64,000 nt of DNA, taken from contig JAZOQY010000041.1 of assembly GCA_045656285.1 (NCBI GenBank), positions 129,404 to 193,403 of the forward strand, in the 5' to 3' direction. The notes beneath the pieces were generated by a model. The model saw only the letters and a list, made by a program, of their open reading frames with translations. It did not search any database and was not told the origin of the DNA. The DNA comes from Kiritimatiellia bacterium. Lineage in GTDB: Bacteria; Verrucomicrobiota; Kiritimatiellia; RFP12; UBA1067. A program made the position numbers and the translations under genes. Below, piece after piece: positions 14,881 to 55,859 of the stretch (position 1 is its first letter; each line of letters opens with the position of its first letter).

Positions 14881-14898
14881 ACGACCTCCTTGATTGAT

Positions 14899-17273: not shown

Positions 17274-17281
17274 ATATGTAT

Positions 17282-17290
17282 ATTATATCA
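17282..17290 (-). promoter_or_regulatory. Extended −10 TGATATAAT, 8 nt upstream of the tyrS ATG (candidate leaderless promoter). Its TGA is the stop codon of the upstream gene
   Basis: Minus-strand sequence reads …AATGATATAATATACATAT-ATG. Confidence 0.4.
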
Positions 17291-18040: not shown

Positions 18041-18043
18041 GGC

Positions 18044-19267: not shown

Positions 19268-20078
19268 CACGCCATCTCCTATGAACCCATAAATATTGTT
19301 CTGGATACTCACGAATCGCCGATTCAAGACGATCGTTCAAAATCTGTGTTGCAGCATCCCTGTCCGCATCTTTGGCAAACGCAAGCGGACTTCCGCCGAC
19401 AAGCCTGTAACGATACGGAGCTATGCGCACAAACGATCCAACAACAATTTTGCATCCGCTCCGCATGGCAAGACGCGTAGCACTCGTAAAAGTACGGGCG
19501 GGACGCCCGAAAAACCGCAATTTCGCGCCGCTCGACGTATGCTGATCGATAAGAATCGTCATCGCAGCCGACGTCTCTGTCCATTGGCGCAAAACGGCAG
19601 ACGTGAAGCCTTTGTTCTTGTCGACCACCGTAACAGGGCCTCTGAAATGATGCTTCTTCATCCATTTCGCGACAAATCTGCTGTTCATCACGCGCGCCAC
19701 AGCGATCATAGGACGGGCAAACGAAAGAACGTTCGTCGCCGCCTCCCATACTCCGTGGTGGGCGCTTACAAGAATAATCGGCTCGTCGGGAGAGTCGAGA
19801 AGAAGCTTTGCAGTTTCAGGATCGATCGAATCGACCTCCAGGTGTTCGCGCCAGTTCGAGGCGTTGACGACATTCGGAACGCAAAGCGCCTCGCAAACAT
19901 GCCCCGCAAGGTGACACCAGGACTTTTTGGCGATTCGCTTGGCCTCCTTCTCGTCTGAAGTAATCCCGCACTTCATGATATTCATAACAGCCAAACGCCT
20001 CCTTTTAGGGAAAAACGGCCACAGGAGCGCGGCAAAACCGGCCCCGAAGCCATAAGCGTGTTTCTGTATGAATGTCAT
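19260..20078 (-). CDS. LpxL/HtrB-family lipid A (lysophospholipid) acyltransferase
   Basis: …ILVSAHHGVWEAA… (the HX4E catalytic motif) and LpxL-like length. Start re-picked at MTFIQKH (20078) so that it abuts the hisD stop. Confidence 0.7.
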   Translation of the reverse strand: MTFIQKHAYGFGAGFAALLWPFFPKRRRLAVMNIMKCGITSDEKEAKRIAKKSWCHLAGHVCEALCVPNVVNASNWREHLEVDSIDPETAKLLLDSPDEPIILVSAHHGVWEAATNVLSFARPMIAVARVMNSRFVAKWMKKHHFRGPVTVVDKNKGFTSAVLRQWTETSAAMTILIDQHTSSGAKLRFFGRPARTFTSATRLAMRSGCKIVVGSFVRIAPYRYRLVGGSPLAFAKDADRDAATQILNDRLESAIREYPEQYLWVHRRWRDD

Positions 20079-20082
20079 GTTT

Positions 20083-21357
20083 CTATTCAAAACGGATAGT
20101 CGCGGCTCTGCCGTGAGCATCCAGACCTTCGACCGCGGCGAACGCCTCGATCGTCGACTTGGTCTCCTTCAGATCCTCCCTGGTGAATGCGACGAAACTG
20201 TGACGGCGGCGGAAATCATCCGGCGTAAGACCGTTGAACATGTCCGCAGCTCCTCCGGTCGGAAGAACATGGCTCGGCCCCGCCACAAAGTCGCCTGCCG
20301 ATTCGGGAGTCCACGGCCCAGCGAAGACCGCTCCCGCCGAACGGACACCCTTCATGACCTTAAGCGCGTCTGAAGTCATGATCTCAAAATGCTCGGGGGC
20401 AAAACGGTTGACGACCTCAAGGCCCTCTTTCACGTTCCTGGCGACGACGATCAAAATCCCGCCGCGGTCTATGACGCGCTTGACTATGTCCTTGCGCGAA
20501 AGCGTCTCGGTCTGCGCGAGAACCTGGGCTTTGATCTCGCGGGCGAACTTTTCGCTCGTGCAGACGCAAAGCGACTTCTCCCACCCGCTGCCGTGCTCGG
20601 CCTGGCTCAAAAGATCGGCGGCTATCCATGACGCGCTGACGGACCCATCGGTCAAAACTGCGATTTCGCTGGGACCGGCCACCTGATCGATGGCGACATA
20701 GCCGTAAACCTGACGTTTGGCCGCCGTGACGTACGCGTTGCCGGGACCCGCAATCTTCTGGACTTTCCTGCAGGATTTCGTGCCGAAAGCCATCATGCCG
20801 ATGGCCTGAATTCCTCCGACCCGGTAAATCTCGGTCGCACCAGCCAATTTAAGGGCATACAAAAGCACGGGATTGACTTCACCTGTCTTGCCGGCGGGAG
20901 TGCAGGCGACGATTTCCTTTACGCCAGCGGCCTTGGCGAGAGTCACGGTCATTATCGAAGTGGACGCCAAAGGCGCGGTGCCGCCGGGAACATAAACGCC
21001 GACACGGTCCATCGGAGAGAAGAACTCGCCCGTGGTTCCGCCGCGCGGAGTCTTCATCGACCATGGCTCGCGCAAAGACGCCTTTGAAAATTTCATGACG
21101 CGACGATGGGCATCCTTGACGGCCTTGAGAACAGACGGATCGATCGTCTTCTCCAAAGAGTCGATGTCGACATCAATCCTCAAAGACTTGCCTTTATAGC
21201 CCTCGAACTTGCGGACATATTTCAAAACGGCCTTCTCTGAATTCTTGCGGATATCGGCAAGAACCCCGAATGCGGCCTTTTCGGCCTCTTCGGGGAACGC
21301 TGGACGAGCATTGAACTTCTCTACGCTCTTATCTCCGGCCTTGACGATTTTTATCAT
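20083..21357 (-). CDS. hisD: Histidinol dehydrogenase
   Basis: Full-length HisD (…VGVYVPGGTAPLASTSIM…SQAEHG…). 424 aa. Confidence 0.9.
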   Translation of the reverse strand: MIKIVKAGDKSVEKFNARPAFPEEAEKAAFGVLADIRKNSEKAVLKYVRKFEGYKGKSLRIDVDIDSLEKTIDPSVLKAVKDAHRRVMKFSKASLREPWSMKTPRGGTTGEFFSPMDRVGVYVPGGTAPLASTSIMTVTLAKAAGVKEIVACTPAGKTGEVNPVLLYALKLAGATEIYRVGGIQAIGMMAFGTKSCRKVQKIAGPGNAYVTAAKRQVYGYVAIDQVAGPSEIAVLTDGSVSASWIAADLLSQAEHGSGWEKSLCVCTSEKFAREIKAQVLAQTETLSRKDIVKRVIDRGGILIVVARNVKEGLEVVNRFAPEHFEIMTSDALKVMKGVRSAGAVFAGPWTPESAGDFVAGPSHVLPTGGAADMFNGLTPDDFRRRHSFVAFTREDLKETKSTIEAFAAVEGLDAHGRAATIRFE

Positions 21358-21369
21358 CTTAAAGCTCCA

Positions 21370-21837
21370 TCATTTGTCCTTTTCGCCGAGGACGCACTTG
21401 ACCTCGCACTCGGCGGCAAGCTCATCTCCGACATACCCCTTGAGGGCGAAAACGCCGAGTCGCGAGCGCACCCGAACGTTTTCGACAACCGTCGTGAGTT
21501 TGTCGCCGGGTCTCACCGGGCGGCGGAAACGGGCATTGTCGACGGCGGCAAGAAGGAACGAAGCCTCCTTGTCCTGGCCGCCGAGAGCATTGCGGGCAAC
21601 AAGCGCCGCACCAGAAACCTGGGCCATCGCCTCAACCAAAACGACACCCGGGACCACAGGAAAATCAGGGAAATGACCTTTGAAAAACTCGTTTTTCTCC
21701 ATCGTGAACGTATATTCGCCCAACGCACCCGTCTCATCGGCGGAAATAAGGTTGTCGACGAACAAGAACGGGCTGCGGTGCGGGAGCAGTTCTATGCCGG
21801 GTTTATTGTACGAGTTTTTGAACTGGGGAAATTCCAT
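21370..21837 (-). CDS. fabZ: 3-hydroxyacyl-ACP dehydratase
   Basis: LPHRSPFLFVD…GHFPDFPVVPGVVLVEAMAQ hotdog motif. Start re-picked at MEFPQF (ATG 21835–21837). Confidence 0.85.
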   Translation of the reverse strand: MEFPQFKNSYNKPGIELLPHRSPFLFVDNLISADETGALGEYTFTMEKNEFFKGHFPDFPVVPGVVLVEAMAQVSGAALVARNALGGQDKEASFLLAAVDNARFRRPVRPGDKLTTVVENVRVRSRLGVFALKGYVGDELAAECEVKCVLGEKDK

Positions 21838-21856
21838 ATCGGTTTTCCTTGGGTTT

Positions 21857-23146
21857 TCAGACCTTTTTGAAGACGAGAATGCCGTTGTGGCCGCCGAATC
21901 CGAGCGAACTCGAAAGCGCGACACGAATCTCGCGCTCGACGCCCTTGTTGGGCGTGTAGTTCAAATCGAGCGGAGTTTCGCCGTTCTCGACATTGACTTC
22001 GAGATCGGGATTCTCGTAATTGATCGTGGGAGGAACGAATCCCTCGTGGATGGCAAGAGCGGTGATCGCGGCCTCGAGCGCGCCCGCCGCGCCGAGAAGG
22101 TGCCCGTGCATGGACTTGGTGGAAGAGATGTTGATCTTCTTCGCGCCCTCCTCGCCGAAGATGCGCTTGAAAGCCTTGGTCTCCATCTGATCGTTGAGAT
22201 GGGTCGATGTTCCGTGCGCGTTGATGTAATCAACCGTAGAGCGGTCTTCTATGCCGGCATCCTTGAGCGCGATCTCGATGGCCTTTACGGCGCCGTCGCC
22301 AGACGGATCGGGAGCCGTGATGTGGTACGCGTCGGACGTCGAACCGTAACCGGCGAGCTCGCAGTAGACGCGGGCGCCGCGAGCCTTGGCGTGCTCCTCG
22401 GATTCGAGAATGAGAACGGCGGCACCCTCGCCCATGACGAAACCGTCGCGGTCGGCATTGAACGGACGGCACGCCTTCTCGGGCGTATCGTTGAACTTTG
22501 TCGAAAGAGCGCGCATTCTCATGAATCCGCCGACGGCGAATTCAAGAACAGCCGCCTCCGTGCCGCCGGCGATGACGACATCGGCGCGGCCTGCGCGGAT
22601 CATGTCGAGCGCGAAGCCAAGCGCATCCGTCGAGCTGGCGCAGGCTGTGGTGACAACCTGAGCGGGGCCCTTGGCGCCAAGCGCGATAGAGACGTTGCCG
22701 GCAGCCTCGTTGGCGATAAGTTCGGGAATCGCCAAAGGAGAGAGGCGTTCAGGGCCACGGTCGAAAAGCGTCTTGTAGCTCTCGCCGGTGACTTCAAGAC
22801 CTCCGATGCCGTTGCCGATGAGAGTGCCGACGCGATCCATGTCGGGCTTGGACTCTTCGGTATAGCCGGCATCGCGCCAGGCCTCGACGGCCGCAGCGAC
22901 GGCGTACTGGGAGAACAGCGCCATGTGACGGGCTTCGCGCTTGTCGATAAGCCCGCCGTCGATTGCATAAGACTGGAAATCCTTCACTTCGCCGGCGACC
23001 TGGCTGGTGCAGCGCGATGCATCGAACTTTGTGATTTTGCCGACAGCCGGAGTGCCCGCCTTGAGCGAAGCCCAGGCCGCGTCTTTGCCGTTGCCGTTGG
23101 CGCACAGCATTCCGATACCAGTAATCATTACTTTCTTCATCTTCAA
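21857..23146 (-). CDS. fabF: β-ketoacyl-ACP synthase II
   Basis: MKMKKVMITGIGMLCANG… Active-site context …VTTACASST…, …HGTST…, …GHLLGAAG…. Confidence 0.9.
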   Translation of the reverse strand: MKMKKVMITGIGMLCANGNGKDAAWASLKAGTPAVGKITKFDASRCTSQVAGEVKDFQSYAIDGGLIDKREARHMALFSQYAVAAAVEAWRDAGYTEESKPDMDRVGTLIGNGIGGLEVTGESYKTLFDRGPERLSPLAIPELIANEAAGNVSIALGAKGPAQVVTTACASSTDALGFALDMIRAGRADVVIAGGTEAAVLEFAVGGFMRMRALSTKFNDTPEKACRPFNADRDGFVMGEGAAVLILESEEHAKARGARVYCELAGYGSTSDAYHITAPDPSGDGAVKAIEIALKDAGIEDRSTVDYINAHGTSTHLNDQMETKAFKRIFGEEGAKKINISSTKSMHGHLLGAAGALEAAITALAIHEGFVPPTINYENPDLEVNVENGETPLDLNYTPNKGVEREIRVALSSSLGFGGHNGILVFKKV

Positions 23147-23179
23147 TTCCTCTCTTTTAAATTCTTGGATTTCTTCCGG

Positions 23180-24202
23180 TTAAAGATTCGGCCAGGTGCA
23201 GAACGTGCCGGCGTACGTAAGGCCCGCGCCGAATCCGACCATGACGATGTTCATTCCGTCCTTGAGTTCCCCGGCTCTGACGGCCTGGTCAAGCGAGATC
23301 GGAATGGATGCTGCGCTCGTGTTGGCCGTTGTTTCGAGATTAAGCCAGAATTTCTCAAGAGGAAGCTTCATGCGGCGCGCGACGGCCTCGATGATGCGAC
23401 CGTTGGCCTGGTGGGCGAACACGCGGTCGATCTCCTCGGGAGTCGTTCCGAGAAGATTGCAGAGATCGCTCGAGACCTTGGCGAGGGTCTTGACCGCAAA
23501 GACAAAGACATCGTGGCCCTTGAGGGTGAGCTCGGGCAGGAACGGCTGAGGCTTCTCCGGAACCTGAGTTACAGGCGAAATCGGCAAAGCGTCCTTGCAG
23601 CCGCCCGTGCGCATGATGAAATGCGAACCCAGGCCGTCGGCCCCGAGAATCGTGTGGGCCTTTGTCTTGAGCGACGCGACACCCGGCGGCTCGTCGTTGC
23701 CGAGAACGACAGCTCCGGCACCGTCGCCGAAGAGGATGCAGCTCGCACGGTCCGTCCAGTCGAGAATGCGCGTAAGCGATTCAGCGCCGATGACGAGAGC
23801 CTTCTTGTCGGGATAGAAGTTCACGAACCCGCGAGCCTGCTCGAGAGCGTAAACGAAGCCGGCGCATGCCGCCTGGAGATCGAAGGCGCCGGCGTTTGTG
23901 CATCCGAGAATTCCCTGGACTATGCAAGCCGTCGAAGGGAAAGGATTATAATCCGGCGTTGATGTCGCTACGACAATCAAGCCTATTTCATCGGCCTTGA
24001 CCCCCGCCGCATCCATCGCCGCCTGAGCGGCTTTTGCGGCCATGGTCGAAGTCGACTCCCCTTCTCCGGCAACATGGCGCGAATGGATGCCCGTATGGGA
24101 ATAAATCCACTCGTCAGACGTTTCCAAAGACTGAGCAATATCGTCGTTTGTGACGATTTTCTCAGGAAGATAACTGCCGGTTCCTAATATACGAATACCC
24201 AT
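23180..24202 (-). CDS. fabH: β-ketoacyl-ACP synthase III
   Basis: MGIRILGTGSYLP…ACAGFVYAL… (Cys-His-Asn triad context). AGGAG sits 6 nt upstream of ATG 24200–24202; the track's GTG start at 24208 is 2 codons longer. Confidence 0.9.
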   Translation of the reverse strand: MGIRILGTGSYLPEKIVTNDDIAQSLETSDEWIYSHTGIHSRHVAGEGESTSTMAAKAAQAAMDAAGVKADEIGLIVVATSTPDYNPFPSTACIVQGILGCTNAGAFDLQAACAGFVYALEQARGFVNFYPDKKALVIGAESLTRILDWTDRASCILFGDGAGAVVLGNDEPPGVASLKTKAHTILGADGLGSHFIMRTGGCKDALPISPVTQVPEKPQPFLPELTLKGHDVFVFAVKTLAKVSSDLCNLLGTTPEEIDRVFAHQANGRIIEAVARRMKLPLEKFWLNLETTANTSAASIPISLDQAVRAGELKDGMNIVMVGFGAGLTYAGTFCTWPNL

Positions 24203-24230
24203 ATTCACTCCTGTTTACGGATTTTGCACC

Positions 24231-26060: not shown

Positions 26061-26999
26061 TCAGAATCCCGGAAGATTCATCTGTCCCGACACGCAGACT
26101 TTGCGTCCTTTGGAAAGCGTCCGGTCCGAGGTATCGTACACTACGAATTTTATCCCGTCGAAACGGCGGGAGAGTTCAGACCTTATGTAATTCGATACGC
26201 TTTTGACATTACCCTTGTCGTCATCGGAGAACCCGATTGCGACCGATCTGCCGAGACCGCCCGTACGTTGGAGCATGTGGAAGACATGCTCCACGAAATC
26301 GCGTATCGCGAACTCCTTGGCGAGTTCCGGCTTTGCGGCCGTCGTGGCCCTGGCGAGCTTCTCCTTGTAGACGGGATCGTTGGCCATACGCTCCTTGAAC
26401 CCGTCGTACGTGACCGCCGCGTAACGGCACATCCCCAGATAGTAATCGAGCTCCTCTTCGTCGGTGCCGAACGTTTCGACCTTGTCGAGAAACTTTCTGT
26501 ATCCGCGAAGATTCGACATCATCGTTTCGCGCTCGAGCGGGGTTAGAGCGTTCTCTATGAAGACGCGAACCGCCTTCTCTATTGTCGCGGGAGCGTGCCC
26601 GCGCGCTGTCACGATGGCGAATATCCGACCTTCGATCAGCGTCTTGCGGAACGTATTGTAGCTCGGAGAAGGCTTCTCGCCGTTTGAAACCTTGGCCAGC
26701 GCCGCAAGCGTATCCTCGATGAAGCGGTTCGGCTCGTCGTCATTTTCGGGATCGGCGAAATTCCTGAACGCCTCGTCCCAGCCGCCGTTCGCCGGCGGAC
26801 GGTAGTGATCGGTGTCGGTTCTCACGAGCGCGAAGGTCGAGGTCGAAACCTCGACGCTCTTCCATACGCCATCCTCGCCTTTATGCTCCATCCTTATCTT
26901 GGTGGGCATGTGAAGGATGTTGTCGTCCCAATCGAAGATGTAATACTTGAAGTCGCGGTTGGCGACCTCTTCGTTCAGGTACGGAACGGGGCGCGTCAC
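26061..26999 (-). CDS. Hypothetical protein, divergent HAD-superfamily hydrolase-like
   Basis: Motif I-like YIFDWDDNIL (position 5 is Asn, not Thr/Val). Motif II-like AIVTAR. Motif IV-like GFSDDDKGN. No closer family recognised. Confidence 0.4.
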   Translation of the reverse strand: MTRPVPYLNEEVANRDFKYYIFDWDDNILHMPTKIRMEHKGEDGVWKSVEVSTSTFALVRTDTDHYRPPANGGWDEAFRNFADPENDDEPNRFIEDTLAALAKVSNGEKPSPSYNTFRKTLIEGRIFAIVTARGHAPATIEKAVRVFIENALTPLERETMMSNLRGYRKFLDKVETFGTDEEELDYYLGMCRYAAVTYDGFKERMANDPVYKEKLARATTAAKPELAKEFAIRDFVEHVFHMLQRTGGLGRSVAIGFSDDDKGNVKSVSNYIRSELSRRFDGIKFVVYDTSDRTLSKGRKVCVSGQMNLPGF

Positions 27000-28258: not shown

Positions 28259-28267
28259 ATTATATCA
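28259..28267 (-). promoter_or_regulatory. Extended −10 TGATATAAT, 9 nt upstream of the rimO ATG (candidate leaderless promoter). Its TGA is the stop codon of the upstream ketosynthase (KS) gene
   Basis: Minus-strand sequence reads TGATATAAT-TGAACAGTC-ATG. Confidence 0.4.
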
Positions 28268-29407
28268 CAATCTTCCGAAAATCACACTCGCATTGCTGCC
28301 GCCGAACGCAAAGGAATTGGAAAGCGCGACGTTCACCTTTACGGCGTTGCCCTTCTCGGCGATCCTGAATGGGGCAATGGAGGAATCGACCTCGTCTGTG
28401 ACATGGGCAGGCACCCCGGCGCCTTTCTGGATCGCCAGGCAGCACAGAGCCGCCTCAAGGGCCCCCGCCGCCCCCAACGCGTGCCCGACGAGAGGCTTTG
28501 TCGAGCTGCACAGGACATCCGCTCCGAAAACACGCGACACCGCCGCGCATTCCATGGAGTCGTTGTATGTCGTTCCTGTTCCGTGGAGATTCACGTAATC
28601 GACCTCGCCCGGCTCGAGATTCGCATCGGCAAGAGCCGCGCGCATGGCCGCCTCGGCTCCGCGGCCTTCGGGATCGGGTGCCGTCAAATGGTAGGCGTCC
28701 GAGGTTTCGCCGACTCCCAGAAGCGCCACGCCGCGCTCTCCTTCATCGGCTTTCCTGAGTATGAAGAGCGCGACGCCCTCGCCGAGGTTTATCCCGTCGC
28801 GACCGGGGGAAAGCGGCCTTGTCAAAGTAGACGAAACAGCCTCAAGGGCGCTGAACCCGTTTACGACAATACGCGTCATCGCATCGGCTCCGCCGACCAG
28901 GACTGCGTCGCAGATCCCGTTTTCGATCAGGCGCCGCGCGGAGGCGAAAACTTTAGCGCTGGACGAGCATGCCGTCGACACGGCCCAGCACGGCCCGCCC
29001 AGAGCGCACTTTTCTTTTATGCGCATGGCGGGATAGCTCATGTCTATCCTGTCCGAAGGCCTGAATTCCTCAAGCGTGGAATTGCTGGTCCCGAGAACAA
29101 CGCCGATGCGTTCGGGACTGCAGCGCCTTTTCAAATCTTCTACGGCGGGCATGAGATTCGAAAGCGCGACATCCACAAGCGCGCCGATACGGGTGGGCGA
29201 GGCCGCCAGTTCCTCATCCGTAAGCGGCACCGACCCGAAAAACGTCTTTTCGCCCGATGTTATTATGCCGTCAAGCTCTTTCATGCCGGACGTATCGCCG
29301 GCTGTCATGCGCGCGTGCGTTGATTCGTTATCGCGCCCGAGAGCGCTTACGATCGTAAAATCGGAGATCAGATAACGGTTTTTATTCTCTTTATCGGCAC
29401 TTTCCAT
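28265..29407 (-). CDS. β-ketoacyl-ACP synthase (FabB/FabF-like ketosynthase (KS)) belonging to a specialised lipid cassette
   Basis: KS fold with Cys-His-His (…VSTACSSS…, …YVNLHGTGT…, …GHALGAAG…). Start re-picked at MESADKENK (ATG 29405–29407); the upstream part of the track ORF is Arg/Cys-rich and unlike KS N-termini. Confidence 0.8.
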   Translation of the reverse strand: MESADKENKNRYLISDFTIVSALGRDNESTHARMTAGDTSGMKELDGIITSGEKTFFGSVPLTDEELAASPTRIGALVDVALSNLMPAVEDLKRRCSPERIGVVLGTSNSTLEEFRPSDRIDMSYPAMRIKEKCALGGPCWAVSTACSSSAKVFASARRLIENGICDAVLVGGADAMTRIVVNGFSALEAVSSTLTRPLSPGRDGINLGEGVALFILRKADEGERGVALLGVGETSDAYHLTAPDPEGRGAEAAMRAALADANLEPGEVDYVNLHGTGTTYNDSMECAAVSRVFGADVLCSSTKPLVGHALGAAGALEAALCCLAIQKGAGVPAHVTDEVDSSIAPFRIAEKGNAVKVNVALSNSFAFGGSNASVIFGRL

Positions 29408-29417
29408 AAGCAACCCT

Positions 29418-32354
29418 TCATTGGACGTTCCACGTAAAATCCTGAAGCGGCCAGGCATCGCGCAGCTTAAGCAGTTCGATCGCATACGCCCTGGACATCT
29501 GCCTGGCTTCGGGCGGCATGCGCTTGACGAAAACACGGTATTTGCGACCGCCCGTCGAAATGCACGAAACAAAATAGACAGGATGCTCCAGCGCGGCGGC
29601 GAACCTGAAGACGCCTTCGGCCAATTCGACCTTCCGGCCGTCGACCTCCTCGATGCGCTTGCGCCCGAAGCTTCTGTCTCCGGCCATCAATATCGCATCG
29701 CCATCATCAAGCCTTTCCCCGGCGAAGAACACAGTGCCGGGATTGAACTCCGAAATCGGATGGATAACAACCTTGTTGCGCCGCTGATGCTTAAGGTAGA
29801 AGGCGTTGAAGACACCCGTGCGAGCAAACTCCATCCATGCGTGGAAAGTCACTTCGCATTCGCCGAGCGCGGCAAGGACCTCGATCGTTCCGACATGGGA
29901 GGAAAGGACAAAAACACCCTTCTTTGCGCTTACGTCGTTTATGAAATCTGCGGCATCCCGAGAATCGTCAAGCTCCACAACGGGCTTTGAGCGTCCGTCT
30001 GCCATAACGACCATCTTGTCCGCAAGCGAGCGCGTAAAGTTCATGACCTTGCCGAGCTTCGGAGAAGCCCTTCTCACGCCCGGCGAACATATCCACATGA
30101 AAAAGCCCGTGCCGGAAGCCGCAAAATGGAAAAACCCCAAGCCGAAAACCCTGTATATCGCCCAGATCAGCGCAAGCCCGAACGGAGTAGACGCGTATTC
30201 GGAAGTATCTTTGCGGGGAACGAAGAGAAGCGAAATCATGTACGCGACGGGCAGGCCGACGGCAAGCGAAAGCCCGAAAGCCCTGACGACAGGGAATGAA
30301 ACGAAAACGAGCGAACCGAAACCTACAAAGCTTGTCAAAAAGGCAAATGTCACGCTCCTGACGGAGTTCTCTTCGCCGGAACGCGCGAAAACCGCGTAAT
30401 CGACACCCATGCCGGCAAGCAGGAAAAGCGCCAAAAGATGGAAAAGATTGACGCCGACCCCCGTCAACGACAGGAATCCGAGCACTGAAACCACCGCCGC
30501 GAGCGAAGGGAATGCGACCGCAAACGCTTTGCGCCCGAAAAGCGCAACAAGAACAATCACCATCGCAACAAGCGAAAGCAACAGCCACAAGCCGATTTCT
30601 TCGGTCCACTCATCCAAAATCCCTTCAAGCGTTTTGCGCGGCTGACAGAACGAGACGCCTTCAACCGCCCCTTCGGACGTCAACACCTCCGGTCGCTGCA
30701 CCGACGAAAGAATCAAAGCTCCGTCCCGCACAAAGAGACTCTTCAACGAATCGGGAACATCGCTCCAAGTCCAGGCTCGAGGTTCGTCCGGGAGCGTCAA
30801 TTCCTCCAATCCGAGTCGGCTTTTGACATATTCGCCCTGCTCTTTGTAGAGAAGCACGACAGCCTCATGCTGCGACTGCCGCTTTTTGAGAGACGGCATG
30901 AAACGCGAAAGGCATGGCACGTCCGGAGGGAGTTCCAAGGACTCTTCCCTTTCGAGAAGCGTCTCAAGATCATCCGGACCGTCCGTCACGAGAAAGCCGC
31001 GGTTTTCGTCAGCCGAGCCGTTTATTTCCGCCAGCGTGCGCTCGGCGTCCGCAAGTTCTTCAGGCGGAGCGTAAAGAGATGTAATGGCGGTCTTGAACCC
31101 AAAGGAACAAAAGCCGGCAAACGAAGCGGCAAACGCGACAACTCCAAAAAAACGCAAGATCTTAACAGGCGGAGAAATGCGCTTGACGGAAGACAAATCG
31201 CCGTATCCGTCAGAGGGAAAGAGGAAAAGCACACAAAACAGAGCCGCCGCAAGCCCGACGCCGATGAATACGCCGCTTTGGCGAAGCACGGGGATGGACG
31301 AAAACAAAAGAGGCAGAAGAGTAATCTCGGTAGTGACAAAAGAAACGACAAGACTTCTTGCCGTCGCGCGAACATCGCCGGAACGGCGCAACAGCCAATG
31401 ATATCCGTAATCGACGACAAGCCCCAGAAGAGTCGTTGCGAAAAGCACTGTCACCACATGGATTTCCGAAAAGACAGACACCAGCGCCAAAGAGCCTGTC
31501 AACGCGGAGAAAAGCAGCAGATAGGCCAAAAGAAAAATCGATTTCAAGGAACGGAACACAAGCAAGGACAGCAAAAGGACAAACATCAGGGAAACGAAAC
31601 CCAGAACTGTCGTCTCGAATTTGCATTTGGCGGCAGAATACGCGCTGTGCATCGGAATTCCGCAGGCGGATGCCGAGACGCTCTCGCTCCTGACATTCTG
31701 AAGAACGTTTTCCAGACGCCCGCGGAAAGCGATAAGCGCATCCATATCGCCAACCAGAGAATCGCCAAGCTCCATCGCGAGCAGAATGTGATGTTCGCCA
31801 TTTTTTTCGGCCGTCAGAAAACCGGTGGAAAAATCGGGCTTGAACGACGACTCGGAGTTCGCAAACGCCTTTGCAAACCCGTCCGTCAGCAGAAAAGGAT
31901 CTTCGTCAACCGGAAACAGCGGCGGCACAATCGACTGGAAAGCGCTCTTGACGGCTCTGCGAGCGATCTTGGAACGTCCTTCAGCCGAGGCCAGCAGTTC
32001 AGCATCGCCCGACGAGACAAGCCCGGAATCATTTTTCCTGCAAAGGTCGGCTATTTCCTCGACCTCGCCTCCGTCTATCCGGAATCTCACGCTTTTGCAT
32101 TCATTGGCCGGAAGATTATCTGCAAGATATTCCGCCGCTTTCAACGCATCCTGTCGATTTCCGGAGGAAACCAGAACAGGAACGACATCATCAGACCCGT
32201 TGCGCACAGCCTCCGGAACGGAATCCGCGGCGGAGCCCACCAAATCATAAAGTGAACTTTTAAGCTCTACGCGTCCAAAAGCAAACACGCACGCCAGCGC
32301 ACACAGGAGCGCCGCGACCGGAGCAGCGGCTTTAGCTGTTCGTTTCAGCGTCAT
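29418..32354 (-). CDS. MMPL-family RND-like exporter fused at its C-terminus to an LpxL/HtrB-like acyltransferase domain
   Basis: aa 1–~715 carry two 6-TM bundles with MMPL signatures (…GLVVDYGYHWL…, …AGMGVDYAVF…) and two large periplasmic loops. aa ~720–978 carry a hydrophobic anchor plus …KKGVFVLSSHVGTIEVLAAL… (HX4E), collinear with the LpxL-like gene at 19260–20078. Confidence 0.75.
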   Translation of the reverse strand: MTLKRTAKAAAPVAALLCALACVFAFGRVELKSSLYDLVGSAADSVPEAVRNGSDDVVPVLVSSGNRQDALKAAEYLADNLPANECKSVRFRIDGGEVEEIADLCRKNDSGLVSSGDAELLASAEGRSKIARRAVKSAFQSIVPPLFPVDEDPFLLTDGFAKAFANSESSFKPDFSTGFLTAEKNGEHHILLAMELGDSLVGDMDALIAFRGRLENVLQNVRSESVSASACGIPMHSAYSAAKCKFETTVLGFVSLMFVLLLSLLVFRSLKSIFLLAYLLLFSALTGSLALVSVFSEIHVVTVLFATTLLGLVVDYGYHWLLRRSGDVRATARSLVVSFVTTEITLLPLLFSSIPVLRQSGVFIGVGLAAALFCVLFLFPSDGYGDLSSVKRISPPVKILRFFGVVAFAASFAGFCSFGFKTAITSLYAPPEELADAERTLAEINGSADENRGFLVTDGPDDLETLLEREESLELPPDVPCLSRFMPSLKKRQSQHEAVVLLYKEQGEYVKSRLGLEELTLPDEPRAWTWSDVPDSLKSLFVRDGALILSSVQRPEVLTSEGAVEGVSFCQPRKTLEGILDEWTEEIGLWLLLSLVAMVIVLVALFGRKAFAVAFPSLAAVVSVLGFLSLTGVGVNLFHLLALFLLAGMGVDYAVFARSGEENSVRSVTFAFLTSFVGFGSLVFVSFPVVRAFGLSLAVGLPVAYMISLLFVPRKDTSEYASTPFGLALIWAIYRVFGLGFFHFAASGTGFFMWICSPGVRRASPKLGKVMNFTRSLADKMVVMADGRSKPVVELDDSRDAADFINDVSAKKGVFVLSSHVGTIEVLAALGECEVTFHAWMEFARTGVFNAFYLKHQRRNKVVIHPISEFNPGTVFFAGERLDDGDAILMAGDRSFGRKRIEEVDGRKVELAEGVFRFAAALEHPVYFVSCISTGGRKYRVFVKRMPPEARQMSRAYAIELLKLRDAWPLQDFTWNVQ

Positions 32355-32947
32355 TTATCTTTCCAGAGCAAATGCGTCGAGCGGGAAATTTCCTTGAACT
32401 CGATCTTCGTGATTCCGCCGCCTTTGGTGCGCATGACGATACGGTCAACCGTACTGTCGCCGACAATCTCGACTTCCTCCATGATTCTGCGAGCCCTCCA
32501 GTTCGAGGGCTTGAAAACGGCCTTCCATCCGCCATTCTCCCCGGGCGAGAACTCCATGTCGACCATTGCCTTGAACGCGCCAGAATCACCGCCGAGAAAG
32601 GCATCGCACGCTTCTCGTATGCGGGCATAATGAGGAAGTTCCGAAAGCGATTTCTCGCGACGCCCGTCCTCGTCGGCAAAAACCATCTTATCCTTCGTCA
32701 TGGAAATCCTTTCGGCGAACGGAAAGCGCACATCCCATACAATGCCCTTTTGGGAGGCGCACGAAACGAGCCCCGTCGAAACAAGAGTCCGATCGGAACC
32801 CGCGAGCTTCCGTTCCATCTTCCACGAAGCGTCAGCATCCAAAGCACGACGCAGCGCAGATTCGCACCTGGAGCGGAGAGACGGCTGCTCAAGCGCCATC
32901 GACGTGCAGGAAAACAGCAGCGCAAACCCCAAACAAAGGTATTTCAT
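32351..32947 (-). CDS. LolA-like periplasmic lipoprotein-carrier-fold protein (putative, ApeL-like)
   Basis: Signal peptide MKYLCLGFALLFSCTSMA. About 200-aa mature protein of LolA/LppX-like size and β-rich composition, sitting between the AMP-ligase and MMPL genes as in aryl-polyene (APE)-type cassettes. Start re-picked at ATG 32945–32947, forming an ATGA overlap. Confidence 0.45.
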   Translation of the reverse strand: MKYLCLGFALLFSCTSMALEQPSLRSRCESALRRALDADASWKMERKLAGSDRTLVSTGLVSCASQKGIVWDVRFPFAERISMTKDKMVFADEDGRREKSLSELPHYARIREACDAFLGGDSGAFKAMVDMEFSPGENGGWKAVFKPSNWRARRIMEEVEIVGDSTVDRIVMRTKGGGITKIEFKEISRSTHLLWKDK

Positions 32948-34260
32948 CGACTTTTCCTTTCCCAAATTCCCGAAGCGCAAGGCCCCCGGAGACCAACCAG
33001 CGAAAACGACCATGAGTCATCGCTCTTTTTGTCTATCTGCAAAGACACTTCTGTCCCCGGGAAAATGACCTTCTGGAATTTCAGCTGGCGCAGAATGCAT
33101 GCGTCAGGAAACGAAGAAAACGCCTGTCGCGCAAAATGCCTTATGAAATAAAGCTGCGCCACGCCGGCGAGAACCGGGAACTTCGGGAAATGCCCGTCAA
33201 AACATTTCATGTCCGGAGGAAACACAAACTTGGCCGACAGGCGATTCGCGCCGAGAGACCACCCGGTCACCGCCGGTTCGCAGCACCACATGTCCAGCAT
33301 TGTCCGAACTGAAGCTACGGTTGTCTTTCCCTGCTCGTTCACCGGCAGCGCGCGGACAAATCTCATGCGGCGCGGAAACGCGGCCTGTTCGACAAGCGGC
33401 GCAATATCGCGTCTCAAACGGGCAGCCAAGCCGCCGACAGTGCCTTTAGCCAGCGCTTCGAGGCCTTCCGGCGAAAGCACGATCAGCGCACCCGTCCTCG
33501 CGACGGCGCCGGAGCAGACTTCGACTCGCACGCGATCTACGAGAGGATGGGACTTGAAGGCCTTTTCAACAGCGGAAAGCGAAACGTACTTCTCGAGTAT
33601 TTTGACGCGACGGTCCAAGCGCGCTCCGAGGACGAAAGTTCGGTCAGAAGTGAATTTTATCGAGTCGGTCATGACGAAAGGACGCGACATGGCGTGGGGC
33701 GAGTCGACCTCAAGGCCGCCCTCGGAAGAAAGACGCGCGTTGACGACAGGACAGAGCGTCCATTCCTCGCCGTTTATCCTTCTGCGCCAGGCCACGGAGC
33801 CCGCCTCGGTCGAGCCGTAAATTTCAAACGGAGAAGTTCCGAGCGTTTCATGGATCGCCTTCGACGTTTCTTCCGCGAGCAGGCTGCCGGAAGTCACGAT
33901 CGAGACGAACATCCCCTTCAGCGCCGCGAAATCCGGATGCCCGAGCGCTTTTTCGAGGAACGACGGCGTCGTCACAAAAAGAATCTTTCCGTATTTCGCG
34001 CACAGGGCGGAAAGTTCCTCGACAGACGTCACGATCGCCGGATCGACGGTCGAGCCGGCGATCGCGGGCGCACGTACGCGCCACAACGCTCCGTACATGT
34101 GCTCGGGACGCACGGTCGAAACCACAACGGGAGCCCGGCACCAGATGTCCGGAAAGGAATTCACAAGCTGAGTCGCATCTGCCATAAGCGACTCTTCGGT
34201 TCTCACGATGCGTTTTGCATCCCCCGTAGAACCGGACGAATGGAAAATCACCTCAGACAT
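32944..34260 (-). CDS. Adenylate-forming (AMP-binding) enzyme lacking the usual N-terminal region, fused to a C-terminal FabA/FabZ-like hotdog dehydratase domain
   Basis: Begins directly at the P-loop-like IFHSSGSTGDAKRIV. Also carries YGSTEAG, …GKILEKYVSLS…, and a C-terminal subdomain …ALPVNEQGKTTV…. aa ~330–438 read FDGHFPKFPVLAGVAQL, to be compared with fabZ GHFPDFPVVPGVVLVEAMAQ in this window. Confidence 0.7.
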   Translation of the reverse strand: MSEVIFHSSGSTGDAKRIVRTEESLMADATQLVNSFPDIWCRAPVVVSTVRPEHMYGALWRVRAPAIAGSTVDPAIVTSVEELSALCAKYGKILFVTTPSFLEKALGHPDFAALKGMFVSIVTSGSLLAEETSKAIHETLGTSPFEIYGSTEAGSVAWRRRINGEEWTLCPVVNARLSSEGGLEVDSPHAMSRPFVMTDSIKFTSDRTFVLGARLDRRVKILEKYVSLSAVEKAFKSHPLVDRVRVEVCSGAVARTGALIVLSPEGLEALAKGTVGGLAARLRRDIAPLVEQAAFPRRMRFVRALPVNEQGKTTVASVRTMLDMWCCEPAVTGWSLGANRLSAKFVFPPDMKCFDGHFPKFPVLAGVAQLYFIRHFARQAFSSFPDACILRQLKFQKVIFPGTEVSLQIDKKSDDSWSFSLVGLRGPCASGIWERKSR

Positions 34261-34639
34261 TCAACACTCTCCTGCGGTAGATATATTCACCGAGAAACAG
34301 GCCGCCCATCAGCAGATACGACAGGAAACCGTTGTAAAAAGCCCATACGCCGGGAGAAAGAAAAACGCTCGCCAGGCTCGCCATGAAATTAAATGCAAGA
34401 AACACGGTCCATACAACCGTCAGCTTCCTGCAGTAACGAACGCCTTTTTCGTCCAGATCACCCCGCATTCTCCTGGCGAAAGCCTCGCAAACGGGAGTCC
34501 GGAAAAGCGAAACGAAAAAAACGAAAAAGGCTATCAGGTTCATGATGACGGGATAAAGCCTGAAATATATTCTGCCTTTGAAGAAATAAACTCCCCAAAC
34601 GGCAAGAACAGGCAATATCGCCGTCAGAACTCGCTTCAT
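34253..34639 (-). CDS. Small four-TM membrane protein of unknown function (ApeG-like position)
   Basis: 128 aa, hydrophobic. Translationally coupled: ATGA with the ACP stop, 8-bp overlap with the AMP-ligase gene. Confidence 0.5.
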   Translation of the reverse strand: MKRVLTAILPVLAVWGVYFFKGRIYFRLYPVIMNLIAFFVFFVSLFRTPVCEAFARRMRGDLDEKGVRYCRKLTVVWTVFLAFNFMASLASVFLSPGVWAFYNGFLSYLLMGGLFLGEYIYRRRVLNV

Positions 34640-34893
34640 TTACCCTGCTCGTTCATCAAACGGAGGACAACGTCGGCGACGTCGCCTATCGTGCGGATCG
34701 ACTTGAAATCCTCCGCCTTAACCTTGAGCCCGGTCTGATTCTGCAAACGGACGACAAGATCCACAGCATCGATGCTGTCAAGATCAAGATCCTCGAAAAG
34801 ACGGGACTCCGGAGTAAGAGTCGCGGCATCGCATTCGAACTCTTCAACCAAAACGGACTTGATCGCCTCTACGGCCTCTTCCCTGGTCTTCAT
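34636..34893 (-). CDS. Acyl carrier protein
   Basis: 85 aa. The phosphopantetheine-attachment motif is LDLDSIDAVDLV. A GGAGGA SD lies inside the preceding ACP gene. Confidence 0.85.
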   Translation of the reverse strand: MKTREEAVEAIKSVLVEEFECDAATLTPESRLFEDLDLDSIDAVDLVVRLQNQTGLKVKAEDFKSIRTIGDVADVVLRLMNEQGK

Positions 34894-34896
34894 TGT

Positions 34897-35175
34897 TCAG
34901 TCCTCCAGCTGGATATCCGCATTGGCCGCAATAAAGCTTGCAAGCGTGGACACGGACTTGAAATGCTCCTTGTTCTCTTCGGAATTCGCTTTGAACTTGA
35001 CCTGGTATTTCTTTCTGAGCGCCACTCCGATTTCAAGAGCGTCAATGCTGTCAAGCCCGACACCGTCGCCGAACAGAGGCTTGTCTGATTCAATGTCGGC
35101 AGCAGTAAGTCCATCCATCTCGACGGAGTTCAAAATAACCTGCCTTATTTCCTCTTCTAATTCAACTCTTTTCAT
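34897..35175 (-). CDS. Acyl carrier protein
   Basis: 92 aa. Attachment motif GVGLDSIDALEI. Confidence 0.85.
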   Translation of the reverse strand: MKRVELEEEIRQVILNSVEMDGLTAADIESDKPLFGDGVGLDSIDALEIGVALRKKYQVKFKANSEENKEHFKSVSTLASFIAANADIQLED

Positions 35176-35216
35176 AAGTAACTTTTTGTTGTGATTGTTG
35201 TTTTCTTTATCTAAAA

Positions 35217-36602
35217 TCAGCTTTGGTTCCTTGGATCGCTCTTTTTAGAAAAGATCAGCGAATACGCCAGAACAACGGCAAAGCATATCACGGGAACAAT
35301 GAACGACGCGCGAAGCGAGGCATTGGAAAGCTTCAGGTTCGTATCCCAAGTGGAATCAAACATATAAGTCAATTTTGCCCAAAGGGAATTCTGGCTTCCA
35401 ATAATCTGAGCCATCCAGGGCGTGAGAAGCGCTCCGCCGACGATAGCCATAATAAGCCCCGCCGCACCAATCTTATGGGCGCGGGAATCAATTCCGCCAA
35501 GTGCGATGCCGTATATCGTGGGAAACATAAGCGACATAAAGCCGCTCATAAGAATAAGGCAGATAACATTCCATGAAAAAGGAAGTCCGCAAACGGTAAA
35601 AATTACCTTCGTCGGGATATACATGACGCCAAAAGAACACGCTATCGCGCAAACGGCAAAAAGCGCCATCAGTTTCGCAGGATCGACATATTTCATACAG
35701 AACGTCGCAACCCATCGGCAGAGGATGAACGTGCAAATGGCGATAAGATAATACGTAGCGCCGTCCTTTGCCGTAACCCCAAGTTCCTTTTGGCAATAAA
35801 CATTCATCCAGGTCCAGGCCGCGATCTGAACCCCGACATAAAAGACCTGTGCAATCACGCCGAGATACCATTTAGGTGAACGGATAAGAATTTTGAAAAT
35901 CTCCGCGAAATCCGTCTTTTCCGCCTGTACCTCGTCTACACTTGAGCGTTTTGAGAAAAAGAAGAAAAACCAGATTAACGCGCAAATTACACAGAGCCCC
36001 ACATAGGGAACACACACCCAAAACAGTTCATTGCGCACGATACCGTCTAGCGCGGCAGGATCCATATTAGCGCGCTCATCTGCCGTCGCCGGATGAAGGT
36101 TCGCAAGAATGAACTGCTGCGCAAGAAGGATTCCAGCAAGGGAACCTAACGGATTGAACATCTGCGCAAAATTTAAGCGTCTGACTGACGTAGACTCATC
36201 GCCCAGCGCGAGAACATAGGGATTGCATGTCGTTTCAAGAACGGCGCACCCTCCGGCTACAATGAAAATTCCGACAATATATGTCCAAAAACTCTGAGCA
36301 ATACAGGCAGGAACATACAACATCGCGCCAATGACATATACGCCTAGACCGACGAGAACGCCTACCCGATAACCTTTCTTCTGTATCAACAGCGAAGCGA
36401 ATATCGCAATAACAGAATATGCCCCGTAGAACGATATCTGCACATACCCCGCCGTAGACTGACTTGTACGGAAAATCTTCTGAAACGCAGGGACGAGATT
36501 GTCCGTCATGTTGTTCAAAAGCCCCCAGAGCGCGAAGCAGCTGACGAGCATGATGAAGATGGAAAGATACTTGCGCGGGACGACGGGGGCGTTGCTGTTC
36601 AT
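35217..36602 (-). CDS. MFS sugar transporter, FucP/GluP (fucose/glucose/galactose:H+ symporter) family
   Basis: 12 TM helices. FucP-type N-terminal loop …LNNMTDNLVPAFQKIF…. 461 aa. Confidence 0.7.
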   Translation of the reverse strand: MNSNAPVVPRKYLSIFIMLVSCFALWGLLNNMTDNLVPAFQKIFRTSQSTAGYVQISFYGAYSVIAIFASLLIQKKGYRVGVLVGLGVYVIGAMLYVPACIAQSFWTYIVGIFIVAGGCAVLETTCNPYVLALGDESTSVRRLNFAQMFNPLGSLAGILLAQQFILANLHPATADERANMDPAALDGIVRNELFWVCVPYVGLCVICALIWFFFFFSKRSSVDEVQAEKTDFAEIFKILIRSPKWYLGVIAQVFYVGVQIAAWTWMNVYCQKELGVTAKDGATYYLIAICTFILCRWVATFCMKYVDPAKLMALFAVCAIACSFGVMYIPTKVIFTVCGLPFSWNVICLILMSGFMSLMFPTIYGIALGGIDSRAHKIGAAGLIMAIVGGALLTPWMAQIIGSQNSLWAKLTYMFDSTWDTNLKLSNASLRASFIVPVICFAVVLAYSLIFSKKSDPRNQS

Positions 36603-38101
36603 CGGCGTGTTCCTAGGAAATATTTGTAGGCAGGGTCTTTAGAGACATCAAGATAATTGTACCCGATTTCATCGAGCACCTTGGTGAATTCGGCGCGTTC
36701 CTCCTTTGGAACCTGGAATCCCGCAAGAACCTTGCCGTGGTCGGCACCGTGATTGCGGTAGTGGAAAAGCGAAATGTTCCAGCGCCCCGCGATGACGGAG
36801 AGGAATTTCATCAAGGCCCCCGGCTTCTCGGGGAACTCGAACGAATAAACGATTTCGTTCACGATCTTCGACGAGCGCCCTCCCACCATGTGACGAACAT
36901 GCTCCTTCGCAAGAGCGTTATCGGAGAGATCGATGCAGTGGAAGCCCGCAGAGCGAAACGACTTCTGCAAAGCCTTTCGCGCGGCGACATCCTTTACCGA
37001 AACCCCGACGAAGATATGGGCGAGAAGCCCCTCGCTCATGCGATAGTTGAATTCGGTGACGTTGTTGCGGCCGAGCTTTTCGATGAACTTTGAGAAACTT
37101 CCCGGCCCCTCCGGAATCGCGCAGTCGAAAATTGCCTCGCGCCCTTCGCCCAGTTCGGTCTGTTCGCAGACGAAGCGGATGCGGTCGAAGTTCATGTTCG
37201 CGCCCGAAATGACCGACGCGTATGTCTCGCCCTTCTTGGCGACCTTCTTAGCCGCCGCGAGACCGAGCGCGCCGGCAGGCTCGCACACCGCGCGTGTCGC
37301 TTCAAAAATATCCTTAATCGCCGCGCACGTTTCGGCCGTCGAAACGCGGATTATCCCATCGAGATTTTCGCGGCAGAGACGGAAAGTCTCTTCGCCTGGC
37401 TTCTTTACGCAGACGCCGTCGGCGAAGAGTCCGGGATTATCGAGCGTAACGCGACGACCCGCCTTTAGCGACTGGAACATGCAGTCGGAATCCTCAGGCT
37501 CGACACCGTAGACCTTCACTCCCGGACGCACTTTCTTAATATAAGCCGAAACGCCCGCCGCGAGACCGCCGCCGCCGATCGGAACGAACACGGCGTCAAG
37601 CTCGCGCCCGACATCATCGAGAATCTCCTTGCCGACAGTACCCTGACCCGCGATGACATCGGGATCGTCGTACGGCGGAATGAATGTAAGACCGAGCTTC
37701 TTGACGAGTCTCGCCGCCTCTTCTGCGCAGTCGGAATATCCGTCGCCGTGAAGAACGATGTTGGCGCCGTGAGCCTTTACGGCATTGATCTTGATTTCAG
37801 GCGTCGTGACGGGCATCACGATAGTCGCCTTTATGCCGAGCTTTTTGGCGGACAGAGCGACGCCCTGGGCATGATTGCCGGCGGAGGCCGCCAAAACTCC
37901 GCGCTCCAGCACCTCGCGCGGCAAAGAACGCATCTTGTTGTAGGCGCCGCGAATCTTGTAGCTGTGAACACTCTGTAGATCCTCACGCTTCAAAAGGAAG
38001 CGGCAACCGTATTTTTTGGAAAGATCCGACGCTTCATCAAGAGGCGTTTTTATTGCCACGTCATAAACGGAAGCATTGAGGATTTTTATGAGATAGTTCA
38101 T
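36599..38101 (-). CDS. ilvA: Threonine dehydratase, biosynthetic (PLP-dependent, with two C-terminal regulatory ACT-like domains)
   Basis: …SVHSYKIRGAYNKM… (PLP-binding Lys), GGGGL, and about 500 aa with a duplicated regulatory C-terminus. Confidence 0.9.
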   Translation of the reverse strand: MNYLIKILNASVYDVAIKTPLDEASDLSKKYGCRFLLKREDLQSVHSYKIRGAYNKMRSLPREVLERGVLAASAGNHAQGVALSAKKLGIKATIVMPVTTPEIKINAVKAHGANIVLHGDGYSDCAEEAARLVKKLGLTFIPPYDDPDVIAGQGTVGKEILDDVGRELDAVFVPIGGGGLAAGVSAYIKKVRPGVKVYGVEPEDSDCMFQSLKAGRRVTLDNPGLFADGVCVKKPGEETFRLCRENLDGIIRVSTAETCAAIKDIFEATRAVCEPAGALGLAAAKKVAKKGETYASVISGANMNFDRIRFVCEQTELGEGREAIFDCAIPEGPGSFSKFIEKLGRNNVTEFNYRMSEGLLAHIFVGVSVKDVAARKALQKSFRSAGFHCIDLSDNALAKEHVRHMVGGRSSKIVNEIVYSFEFPEKPGALMKFLSVIAGRWNISLFHYRNHGADHGKVLAGFQVPKEERAEFTKVLDEIGYNYLDVSKDPAYKYFLGTRR

Positions 38102-51766: not shown

Positions 51767-51784
51767 TTTAAAAAACTCCTTTTC

Positions 51785-53632: not shown

Positions 53633-53638
53633 AATTGC

Positions 53639-53669: not shown

Positions 53670-53687
53670 GAAAAATATAATTTTTAC

Positions 53688-53727: not shown

Positions 53728-53758
53728 GTGATGGCGACTGCTATTTAACGATAAAAGC

Positions 53759-55840: not shown

Positions 55841-55859
55841 TTTTAAAACTCCTTTATTC

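Follow-up and report, generated by a model that had tools for sequence, protein, structure and literature searches.

A seven-gene aryl polyene-type cassette with two domain fusions in Kiritimatiellia, probably one half of a split lipid cluster

Few bacterial biosynthetic gene clusters are as widespread as the aryl polyene (APE) clusters, and the steps by which their products are attached to a lipid anchor and exported are still models. In the characterized systems, the starter unit is 4-hydroxybenzoate. Those systems (apeA-R of Escherichia coli CFT073, Xenorhabdus doucetiae, and Acinetobacter baumannii) belong to proteobacterial hosts, whereas the cassette described here is found in an anaerobic gut Kiritimatiellia bacterium (Verrucomicrobiota; RFP12; UBA1067). 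It occupies positions 28265-35175 of a stretch of 64,000 nucleotides (GCA_045656285.1, contig JAZOQY010000041.1, positions 129,404-193,403), hereafter called the window, and consists of seven consecutive open reading frames (ORFs), all on the minus strand. The cassette is a lineage-specific, recognizable member of a known pathway and not a new kind of system. It is probably the loading, carrier, export, and attachment half (ApeE-ApeO) of an APE lipid cluster that has been split, the remaining half being located elsewhere in the genome.

Counterparts of the cassette in described systems

The reference for the comparison was the APE cluster of Erwinia amylovora (L006; order ApeC-D-E-F-G-H-I-J-K-L-M-N-O-P-Q-R), whose proteins were searched against the window. 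The tblastn, Pfam, and NCBIfam surveys of the neighborhood cover the 64-kb window only. By this comparison, the cassette can be assigned gene by gene to ApeE, ApeF, ApeG, ApeH-ApeI, ApeL, ApeM joined to the C-terminal half of ApeJ, and ApeO, and it shares the order ApeE, F, G, H, I, L, M, O with the characterized clusters. As in those clusters, there are tandem acyl carrier proteins (ACPs) of the same NCBIfam families, an ApeO-type ketosynthase (KS), and an ApeL ahead of an ApeM-type exporter. The initial annotation had placed a seven-gene cassette with these gene types at the same position and had called it an APE-type lipid biosynthesis and export cassette of the "type II polyketide synthase-like" kind. 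The ORFs, the Pfam and NCBIfam matches, and the profile and fold comparisons bear out the gene types, and the orthology to the Erwinia cluster bears out the class. The further claim that no characterized system matches was wrong, as every gene has an orthologue among ApeE-ApeO of E. coli, Xenorhabdus, and Acinetobacter.

The ApeE-like ACP (PRK09184, 80 bits against a cut-off of 70) is 53% identical to Erwinia ApeE by tblastn and carries the DSI serine motif. The ApeF-like ACP (PF00550, E = 2e-13; PRK05350, 108 bits against a cut-off of 65) is 52% identical to Erwinia ApeF by the same method. The 128-residue membrane protein has no match in a Pfam search. A hydropathy scan shows three to four hydrophobic helices, and the protein is 40% identical (E = 8e-17) to the 182-residue Erwinia ApeG over ApeG residues 80-178 only, so that, unlike in the APE clusters, ApeG is reduced to its C-terminal ~100 residues. 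The KS matches PF00109/PF02801 and reaches 399.8 bits with PRK09185, just under the cut-off of 407. It is closer to Erwinia ApeO (40% identity, 223 bits) than to ApeR (30%, 76 bits) by tblastn, and its Cys146/His275/His308 triad is intact.

The first of the two fusions joins a ligase to a hotdog dehydratase. PF00501 is matched from profile positions 166-330 only, and the ApeI-like PF22818 follows in the same protein. The adenylating (ANL) domain aligns with Erwinia ApeH residues 144-454 at 28% identity (tblastn); unlike the ApeH of the APE clusters, it is short by ~140 N-terminal residues and fused to ApeI. It opens exactly at the P-loop (SSGSTGDAK), after which the motif set of the alignment (YGSTE, GRxDxxxK, GK) is retained as YGSTE, GARLDRRVK, and NEQGK. 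The best PDB folds for its AlphaFold2 model (pLDDT 89.5) are MatB, ACSM2A, aryl-CoA ligases, and DltA. A domain that starts at the P-loop and still looks catalytically complete would be an unusually small adenylating enzyme.

The ApeI-like domain is 30% identical to Erwinia ApeI (tblastn), with profile matches to PDB entries 3ESI and 6QSR. In FabZ, the active-site His and Glu are supplied by different subunits. A hotdog alignment shows that ApeI-type domains, including that of the window, keep the GHFP His and have Gln at the site of the FabZ catalytic Glu, while ApeP-type proteins have the Glu-bearing E..AQ motif and no His. Because the two proteins complement each other in this way, and because FabZ draws these residues from different subunits, an ApeI:ApeP heterodimer should have a single composite site, and without its partner the ApeI domain should show no activity. 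In known systems, ApeP is the partner of ApeI (work of Grammbitter, as cited in 10.1101/2020.12.19.423268). The fusion of ApeH to ApeI argues that starter loading and the dehydratase share one complex.

Next in the cassette is the LolA-like protein, which has a hydrophobic signal-like segment at its N terminus. Its match to PF19574 (LolA_3) is borderline (E = 6e-5, 22.8 bits against a cut-off of 23), that to the NCBIfam family LolA2_flexi has an E value of 3e-5, and its profile aligns with Erwinia ApeL with an hhalign probability of 97.3% (E = 1.6e-11). The exporter domain of the second fusion matches PF03176 weakly (E = 1.6e-3), TIGR00921 (HAE3) with an E value of 4e-10, and Erwinia ApeM residues 73-767 at 24% identity (tblastn, E = 1.7e-24). 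Hydropathy suggests a topology of 1+5 / 1+5 helices with two large loops. The C-terminal ~260 residues of this 978-residue protein are not recognized by Pfam, Lip_A_acyltrans (PF03279) reaching only an E value of 0.16. Since this acyltransferase domain and the ApeG-like protein escape Pfam, other methods, such as profile and fold comparison, are needed for them. The profile of the C-terminal domain matches Erwinia ApeJ residues 258-551 (hhalign probability 97.9%, E = 4.8e-13), where SSHVGTIE pairs with ASHLGDIE of ApeJ, and H820 and E825 of this HX4E motif are invariant across 27 homologs.

In Foldseek, the AlphaFold2 model of the acyltransferase domain (pLDDT 83) has LpxM (5KN7, E = 1.7e-9) and the sugar-acylating PatA (5F2T/5F34) as its best PDB matches. 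The domain is like LpxM/LpxL and mycobacterial PatA in fold (E = 1e-9 to 1e-8, TM-score ~0.6) and in the HX4E motif; unlike them, it is joined to an RND exporter, and it is only 12-16% identical to them and under the PF03279 threshold. The predicted fold fits the proposal that ApeJ acylates a sugar hydroxyl (10.1101/2020.12.19.423268). The domain is the C-terminal half of ApeJ relocated onto the C terminus of ApeM, the position at which proteobacteria have ApeN (DUF3261). Like the ApeH-ApeI fusion, this arrangement serves as Rosetta-stone evidence, and it argues for a physical link between the last acylation step and export. The fused dehydratase (ApeI) and the fused acyltransferase (half of ApeJ) are rearranged known parts and not new functions. 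As to the domains named in the initial annotation, AMP-binding and hotdog domains are matched by Pfam, the MMPL match is weak, and the LpxL-like domain falls below the Pfam threshold and was recovered by profile and fold.

According to Grammbitter et al. (10.1101/2020.12.19.423268), the core set of an APE cluster comprises apeO/R, apeE/F, apeC, apeI/P, apeQ, and apeM. The features of an APE cluster that are present here are the tandem ACPs, the ApeO-type KS, the ApeH-type enzyme, and the ApeM exporter with ApeL and ApeG. ApeC (PF13723), ApeR, and ApeQ are not present in the window. The dehydratase pair is represented by ApeI as a fused domain, there being no ApeP and FabZ being the sole other hotdog protein, and of the ApeJ/D/K/N set only the acyltransferase half of ApeJ is seen. 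Unlike the APE clusters, the cassette comes without ApeA, B, N, K, and the glycosyltransferase half of ApeJ, and without a contiguous ApeP-Q-R-C-D. Searches by tblastn with ApeC, D, J (glycosyltransferase half), K, N, P, Q, and R at E = 1e-3, with queries from Erwinia and two Kiritimatiellia clusters (three ApeC and three ApeQ queries), returned nothing in the window except FabF as a weak ApeR/ApeO paralog. The ketoreductase (KR) and chain-length factor (CLF), reported earlier as missing from the cassette, are therefore absent from the whole 64 kb. ApeC matters here in that ApeO acts as a heterodimer with it, as shown by structures and assays (PMC8358021). The initial annotation was also right that the cassette has no ammonia-lyase and no methyltransferase. 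This is not unusual, because both are absent from the Erwinia cluster as well and because methylation by ApeB, as seen in Xenorhabdus, is a decoration and not a core step (10.1101/2020.12.19.423268).

The flexirubin/dialkylresorcinol clusters of Bacteroidota share the general type II polyketide synthase-like logic, and the LolA2_flexi match mentioned above is a weak link to them. Unlike those clusters, the window has no DarB-type KS (the only match to DarB is its FabH, with 52 bits where 550 are required), and there is no ammonia-lyase among its annotated genes, DarA not having been searched for specifically. The cassette is clearly more similar to proteobacterial Ape proteins than to flexirubin proteins.

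Fused and split clusters in related Kiritimatiellia

Both fusions are real, and they are not confined to this locus but lineage-wide in gut and rumen Kiritimatiellia. For the one between exporter and acyltransferase, there are ~32 full-length cluster representatives, 966-1006 residues long, and the next-best homologs are ordinary MMPL proteins of 750-930 residues with at most 26% identity. The ligase-hotdog fusion (PF00501 + PF22818) has 300 homologs, those listed being nearly all ~438 residues long (412-456). A scan of species-representative genomes for the exporter fusion gave 48 loci from rumen, gut, and faecal metagenome-assembled genomes (MAGs), nearly all labelled Kiritimatiellia, Kiritimatiellae, Kiritimatiellaeota, or older group names. 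Six contigs (L012, L031, L036, L037, L048, and L050) are filed under Gemmiger, Faecalibacterium, Alistipes, Methanomethylophilaceae, Lachnospira, and Azospirillum; these foreign MAG names are probably due to mis-binning.

Among 60-odd related loci, viewed over 10 kb on either side of the exporter fusion, there are five arrangements: a contiguous cluster from ApeE to ApeD, a cluster that stops at ApeO, a pair of exporter fusion and ApeO, a run from ApeE to the exporter fusion without ApeO, and the exporter fusion alone. About a dozen genomes (L002/L015, L005, L016, L018, L020, L029, L030, L034, L038, and L047) have the contiguous order E-F-G-HI-(J-K)-L-MX-O-P-Q-R-C-D, where HI and MX stand for the two fusions. 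Examples of these contiguous clusters (L002 = GCA_045535455.1 JAZSLQ010000114, L018, and L038) share both fusions and the gene order up to ApeO with the window, at 45-62% amino acid identity. Unlike the window, they run on into ApeP, ApeQ (KR), ApeR (KS), ApeC (CLF), and ApeD (a PlsC-type acyltransferase), and the basal ones also retain a 240-residue GT2 protein (the N-terminal half of ApeJ) and the thioesterase ApeK. Half-clusters that end at ApeO, as in the window, are found in at least eight genomes (L003, L008, L010, L011, L014, L019, L026, and L055). The loci closest to the window, L070 (ligase-hotdog protein 99% identical) and L003 (exporter fusion 86% identical), lie on short contigs and have the same layout. 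In some loci (L001, L013, L017, L022-L024, and L044), the ape genes within 10 kb amount to the exporter fusion, either by itself or paired with an ApeO-like KS; these could be either further fragments of the cluster or a pair with its own function.

The other half also occurs by itself. A profile search for ApeC gave 856 homologs, and all five contexts examined are stand-alone P-Q-R-C(-D) modules amid unrelated housekeeping genes. Stand-alone P-Q-R-C-D modules are present in L056/57, L058/59, L060-L069, and L071, and in L025 Q-R-C-D lies apart from the exporter fusion. No genes of the ApeE-ApeO half are found near these modules within the available flanks (7.5-10 kb upstream). In a rough neighbor-joining tree of the exporter fusion, the contiguous arrangement with ApeJ and ApeK is basal, and the truncated one is spread over four or more separate clades. 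Because of this distribution and the stand-alone modules, we conclude that the cluster has been broken repeatedly and that both halves occur as separate modules in Kiritimatiellia.

The cassette is maintained by purifying selection. Compared with L003, the 86%-identical locus, the seven genes have ratios of nonsynonymous to synonymous substitution (dN/dS) of 0.00-0.17 at dS 0.2-0.67. The ApeE-like ACP has 100% amino acid identity at dS 0.59, and the ratios are 0.04 for the ApeF-like ACP, 0.08 for the KS, and 0.17 for the ApeG-like protein. Apart from the invariant ApeE-like ACP, the cassette ratios (0.04-0.17) compare with 0.005-0.07 for the neighboring genes. The flanking IlvA changes much more slowly than the cassette proteins. 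When L008 (4393-14000) is aligned with the window (28265-38101), IlvA is 99% identical, the cassette proteins 59-82%, and an MFS protein 61%. The missing obligatory partners are likely to be encoded elsewhere because such maintained selection is hard to reconcile with their absence.

From antiSMASH-based surveys, arylpolyene clusters were already known in Kiritimatiellae of RFP12/UBA1067 (PMC10904984), in MAGs of gut "Lentisphaerae" and "Verrucomicrobia" (PMC9769736), and in Verrucomicrobiota of the camel rumen (PMC9177762), where RUI187 corresponds to L055. A yellow-colored Pontiella strain has been reported as well (PMC7356697). In the literature, we found no description of the two fusions or of the split organization. 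In gut and rumen MAGs, cluster-mining tools will call half-clusters of this kind too rarely or score them wrongly.

Proposed pathway and alternative readings

We infer the chemistry of the cassette from the characterized E. coli, Xenorhabdus, and Acinetobacter systems (10.1101/2020.12.19.423268; PMC8253772; PMC8358021). The ApeH-like domain would adenylate an aromatic or other carboxylate starter and load it onto the ApeE-like ACP. ApeO with ApeC, together with ApeR, would extend the chain with malonyl units, ApeQ would reduce the growing chain, and ApeI with ApeP would dehydrate it, which would give a conjugated polyene on the ACP. The ApeJ-type acyltransferase tethered to the exporter would then move the acyl chain from the ACP to a membrane (glyco)lipid at the cytoplasmic face, and the ApeM-like exporter with the periplasmic ApeL and the small ApeG may deliver the lipid to the outer membrane. 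ApeC, the partner of ApeO, ApeP, the partner of ApeI, and ApeQ, ApeR, and ApeD would be supplied by a separate module elsewhere in the genome. That this genome has such a second P-Q-R-C-D module is likely, judging from its relatives.

Several observations weigh against a split cluster. Homologs of KR, CLF, ApeP, ApeR, and ApeD were not found by tblastn in the 64-kb window. No assembly, by comparison of accession numbers and contig names, is shared between a half-cluster and a stand-alone P-Q-R-C-D module. Some relatives keep the exporter fusion, with or without ApeO, as the only ape genes within 10 kb on either side, so that the missing genes may have been lost instead of relocated. The ANL domain comes without the ~140 N-terminal residues of Erwinia ApeH, and its adenylating activity is predicted. 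Finally, no product, pigment, or starter is on record for any Kiritimatiellia cluster of this type.

Alternatively, the seven genes may suffice by themselves, with housekeeping FabG, FabZ, and FabF providing reduction, dehydration, and extra condensations for a distinct exported acylated lipid. The absence of KR, CLF, and ApeP from the 64 kb speaks for this, as do the recurrence of the truncated arrangement in several clades under purifying selection and the housekeeping FabH-FabF-FabZ genes 4-7 kb downstream in the lineage of the window. We nevertheless consider it unlikely. FabH, FabF, and FabZ score above the cut-offs of housekeeping equivalogs or subfamilies, show 98-99% conservation, and have no link to the cassette in other lineages. 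The ApeI-type domain has no catalytic Glu and has ApeP as its partner in known systems, ApeO works with ApeC (PMC8358021), and stand-alone P-Q-R-C-D modules are common in Kiritimatiellia. The minimal variant borrowing FabG/FabZ that the initial annotation proposed is likewise made unlikely by the dozen or so fusion-bearing relatives with ApeP-Q-R-C-D directly downstream and by the ApeI lacking Glu. It is quite improbable, too, that a small ANL-hotdog protein and a lone ApeO-type KS, without ApeC/P/Q/R/D, work with the enzymes of fatty acid synthesis to build an unusual acyl chain, which the exporter-fused acyltransferase would attach during export. If the seven genes do act alone, anaerobic gut Kiritimatiellia would have a new class of lipid and a new route of export that is coupled to acylation.

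It is also quite doubtful that the cassette is a repurposed remnant, in which the polyene half has been lost and the rest, elongating hardly or not at all, couples a short acyl or simple aromatic group to an envelope lipid that is exported. Such a role would agree with the loci listed above that persist with an exporter fusion and ApeO, or with the exporter fusion alone, the latter suggesting that the exporter-acyltransferase can be retained by itself, and with the faster evolution of the cassette proteins relative to their neighbors. However, the KS triad and the ApeI His are kept under purifying selection, for which there would be little reason if chain elongation and dehydration had become obsolete, and a view of 10 kb on either side cannot establish that other genes are absent genome-wide. 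That the cassette is a decaying, non-functional leftover, as the incomplete pathway in the window and an ANL domain and ApeG shorter than their proteobacterial homologs might suggest, is very improbable and largely refuted by the selection data (dN/dS 0.00-0.17 at dS up to 0.67), since all ORFs and catalytic motifs are intact and the truncations have a constant length over hundreds of homologs, full clusters included.

Gene packing and neighborhood of the cassette

Features of the cassette, in order of transcription, with positions in the window
Feature	Position	Strand	Basis
ApeE-like acyl carrier protein, 92 aa	34897-35175	-	PF00550, PRK09184, tblastn vs Erwinia ApeE
ApeF-like acyl carrier protein, 85 aa	34636-34893	-	PF00550, PRK05350, tblastn vs Erwinia ApeF
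Short ApeG-like membrane protein, 128 aa	34253-34639	-	tblastn vs Erwinia ApeG, hydropathy scan
Whole AMP-binding + ApeI-like fusion, 438 aa	32944-34260	-	PF00501 + PF22818
Residues 1-~320 of the 438-aa fusion, predicted ApeH-like adenylating (ANL) domain with truncated N terminus	33301-34260	-	
ApeI-like hotdog dehydratase domain of the 438-aa fusion	32944-33300	-	PF22818
ApeL-like (LolA-fold) periplasmic carrier, 198 aa	32351-32947	-	hhalign to Erwinia ApeL
Whole exporter + acyltransferase fusion, 978 aa	29418-32354	-	
ApeM-like MMPL/RND (HAE3-like) exporter domain, residues 1-~715	30210-32354	-	PF03176, TIGR00921, tblastn
ApeJ-C-like LpxL/LpxM/PatA-fold acyltransferase domain, residues ~716-978 of the exporter fusion	29418-30209	-	hhalign, Foldseek
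ApeO-like ketosynthase, 380 aa from M56 of a long ORF	28265-29407	-	PF00109/PF02801, PRK09185

In the direction of transcription, the junctions between the seven genes are +3, -4 (ATGA), -8, -4 (ATGA), -4 (ATGA), and +10 nt. For the LolA-like gene, the most likely start is not 33013 but the internal MKY codon at 32947, which gives an ATGA overlap with the gene upstream. The KS start is ambiguous between 29407 and 29458, and a TTG start at 29572 is unlikely. Close packing is not particular to the cassette, as there is also a 4-nt overlap between ilvA and an MFS gene upstream, and a gap of 15 nt between the KS and RimO downstream. At neither end of the cassette did a consensus scan give promoter or terminator signals exceeding the shuffled background. 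Almost all genes of the window are encoded by the minus strand. Together with a plus-strand GC skew that stays negative nearly throughout (one 2-kb bin is positive), this suggests a long leading-strand, co-directional gene array.

By Pfam and NCBIfam, the other window genes are only housekeeping and glycan-degradation genes. The downstream FabH, FabF, FabZ, RimO, and YgiQ all exceed their curated NCBIfam cut-offs, and the only other KS in the window is the FabF equivalog (540 bits against a cut-off of 493.75), which is 33% identical to ApeR. FabH-FabF-FabZ (21370-24208) were considered as the missing KS and dehydratase of the cluster and were rejected, as they are above the housekeeping cut-offs and 98-99% conserved, with dN/dS of 0.005-0.03; they are linked to the cassette only in the lineage of the window. 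An envelope-lipid neighborhood at 14101-20120 (minus strand) has LpxA, LptF/G, a transmembrane-rich GT2 protein, and an ordinary LpxL-like acyltransferase. The latter (19260-20120) shows no close relation to the exporter-fused domain, and the pair of LpxL-like and GT2 genes (18044-20120) was rejected as a displaced ApeJ (hhalign probability 17%, BLASTP E > 1).

Between RimO and YgiQ, and overlapping both, a 312-residue ORF (26061-26999, minus strand) has no Pfam or NCBIfam match and is strongly conserved relative to L003 (97% amino acid identity, dN/dS 0.025). At 49673-57692 (minus strand), a two-gene unit is present as a tandem duplicate (697+615 aa and then 693+610 aa; 58% and 67% amino acid identity). 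The proteins, for which Pfam gives no match, appear to be secreted, and the unit lies in a stretch of lower GC content (~0.45-0.48 versus 0.53-0.60) beside GH30 and alpha-galactosidase genes. Finally, a 756-residue ORF at 7703-9973 (minus strand) combines a type II secretion pseudopilin-G-like N terminus with GH2-like domains.

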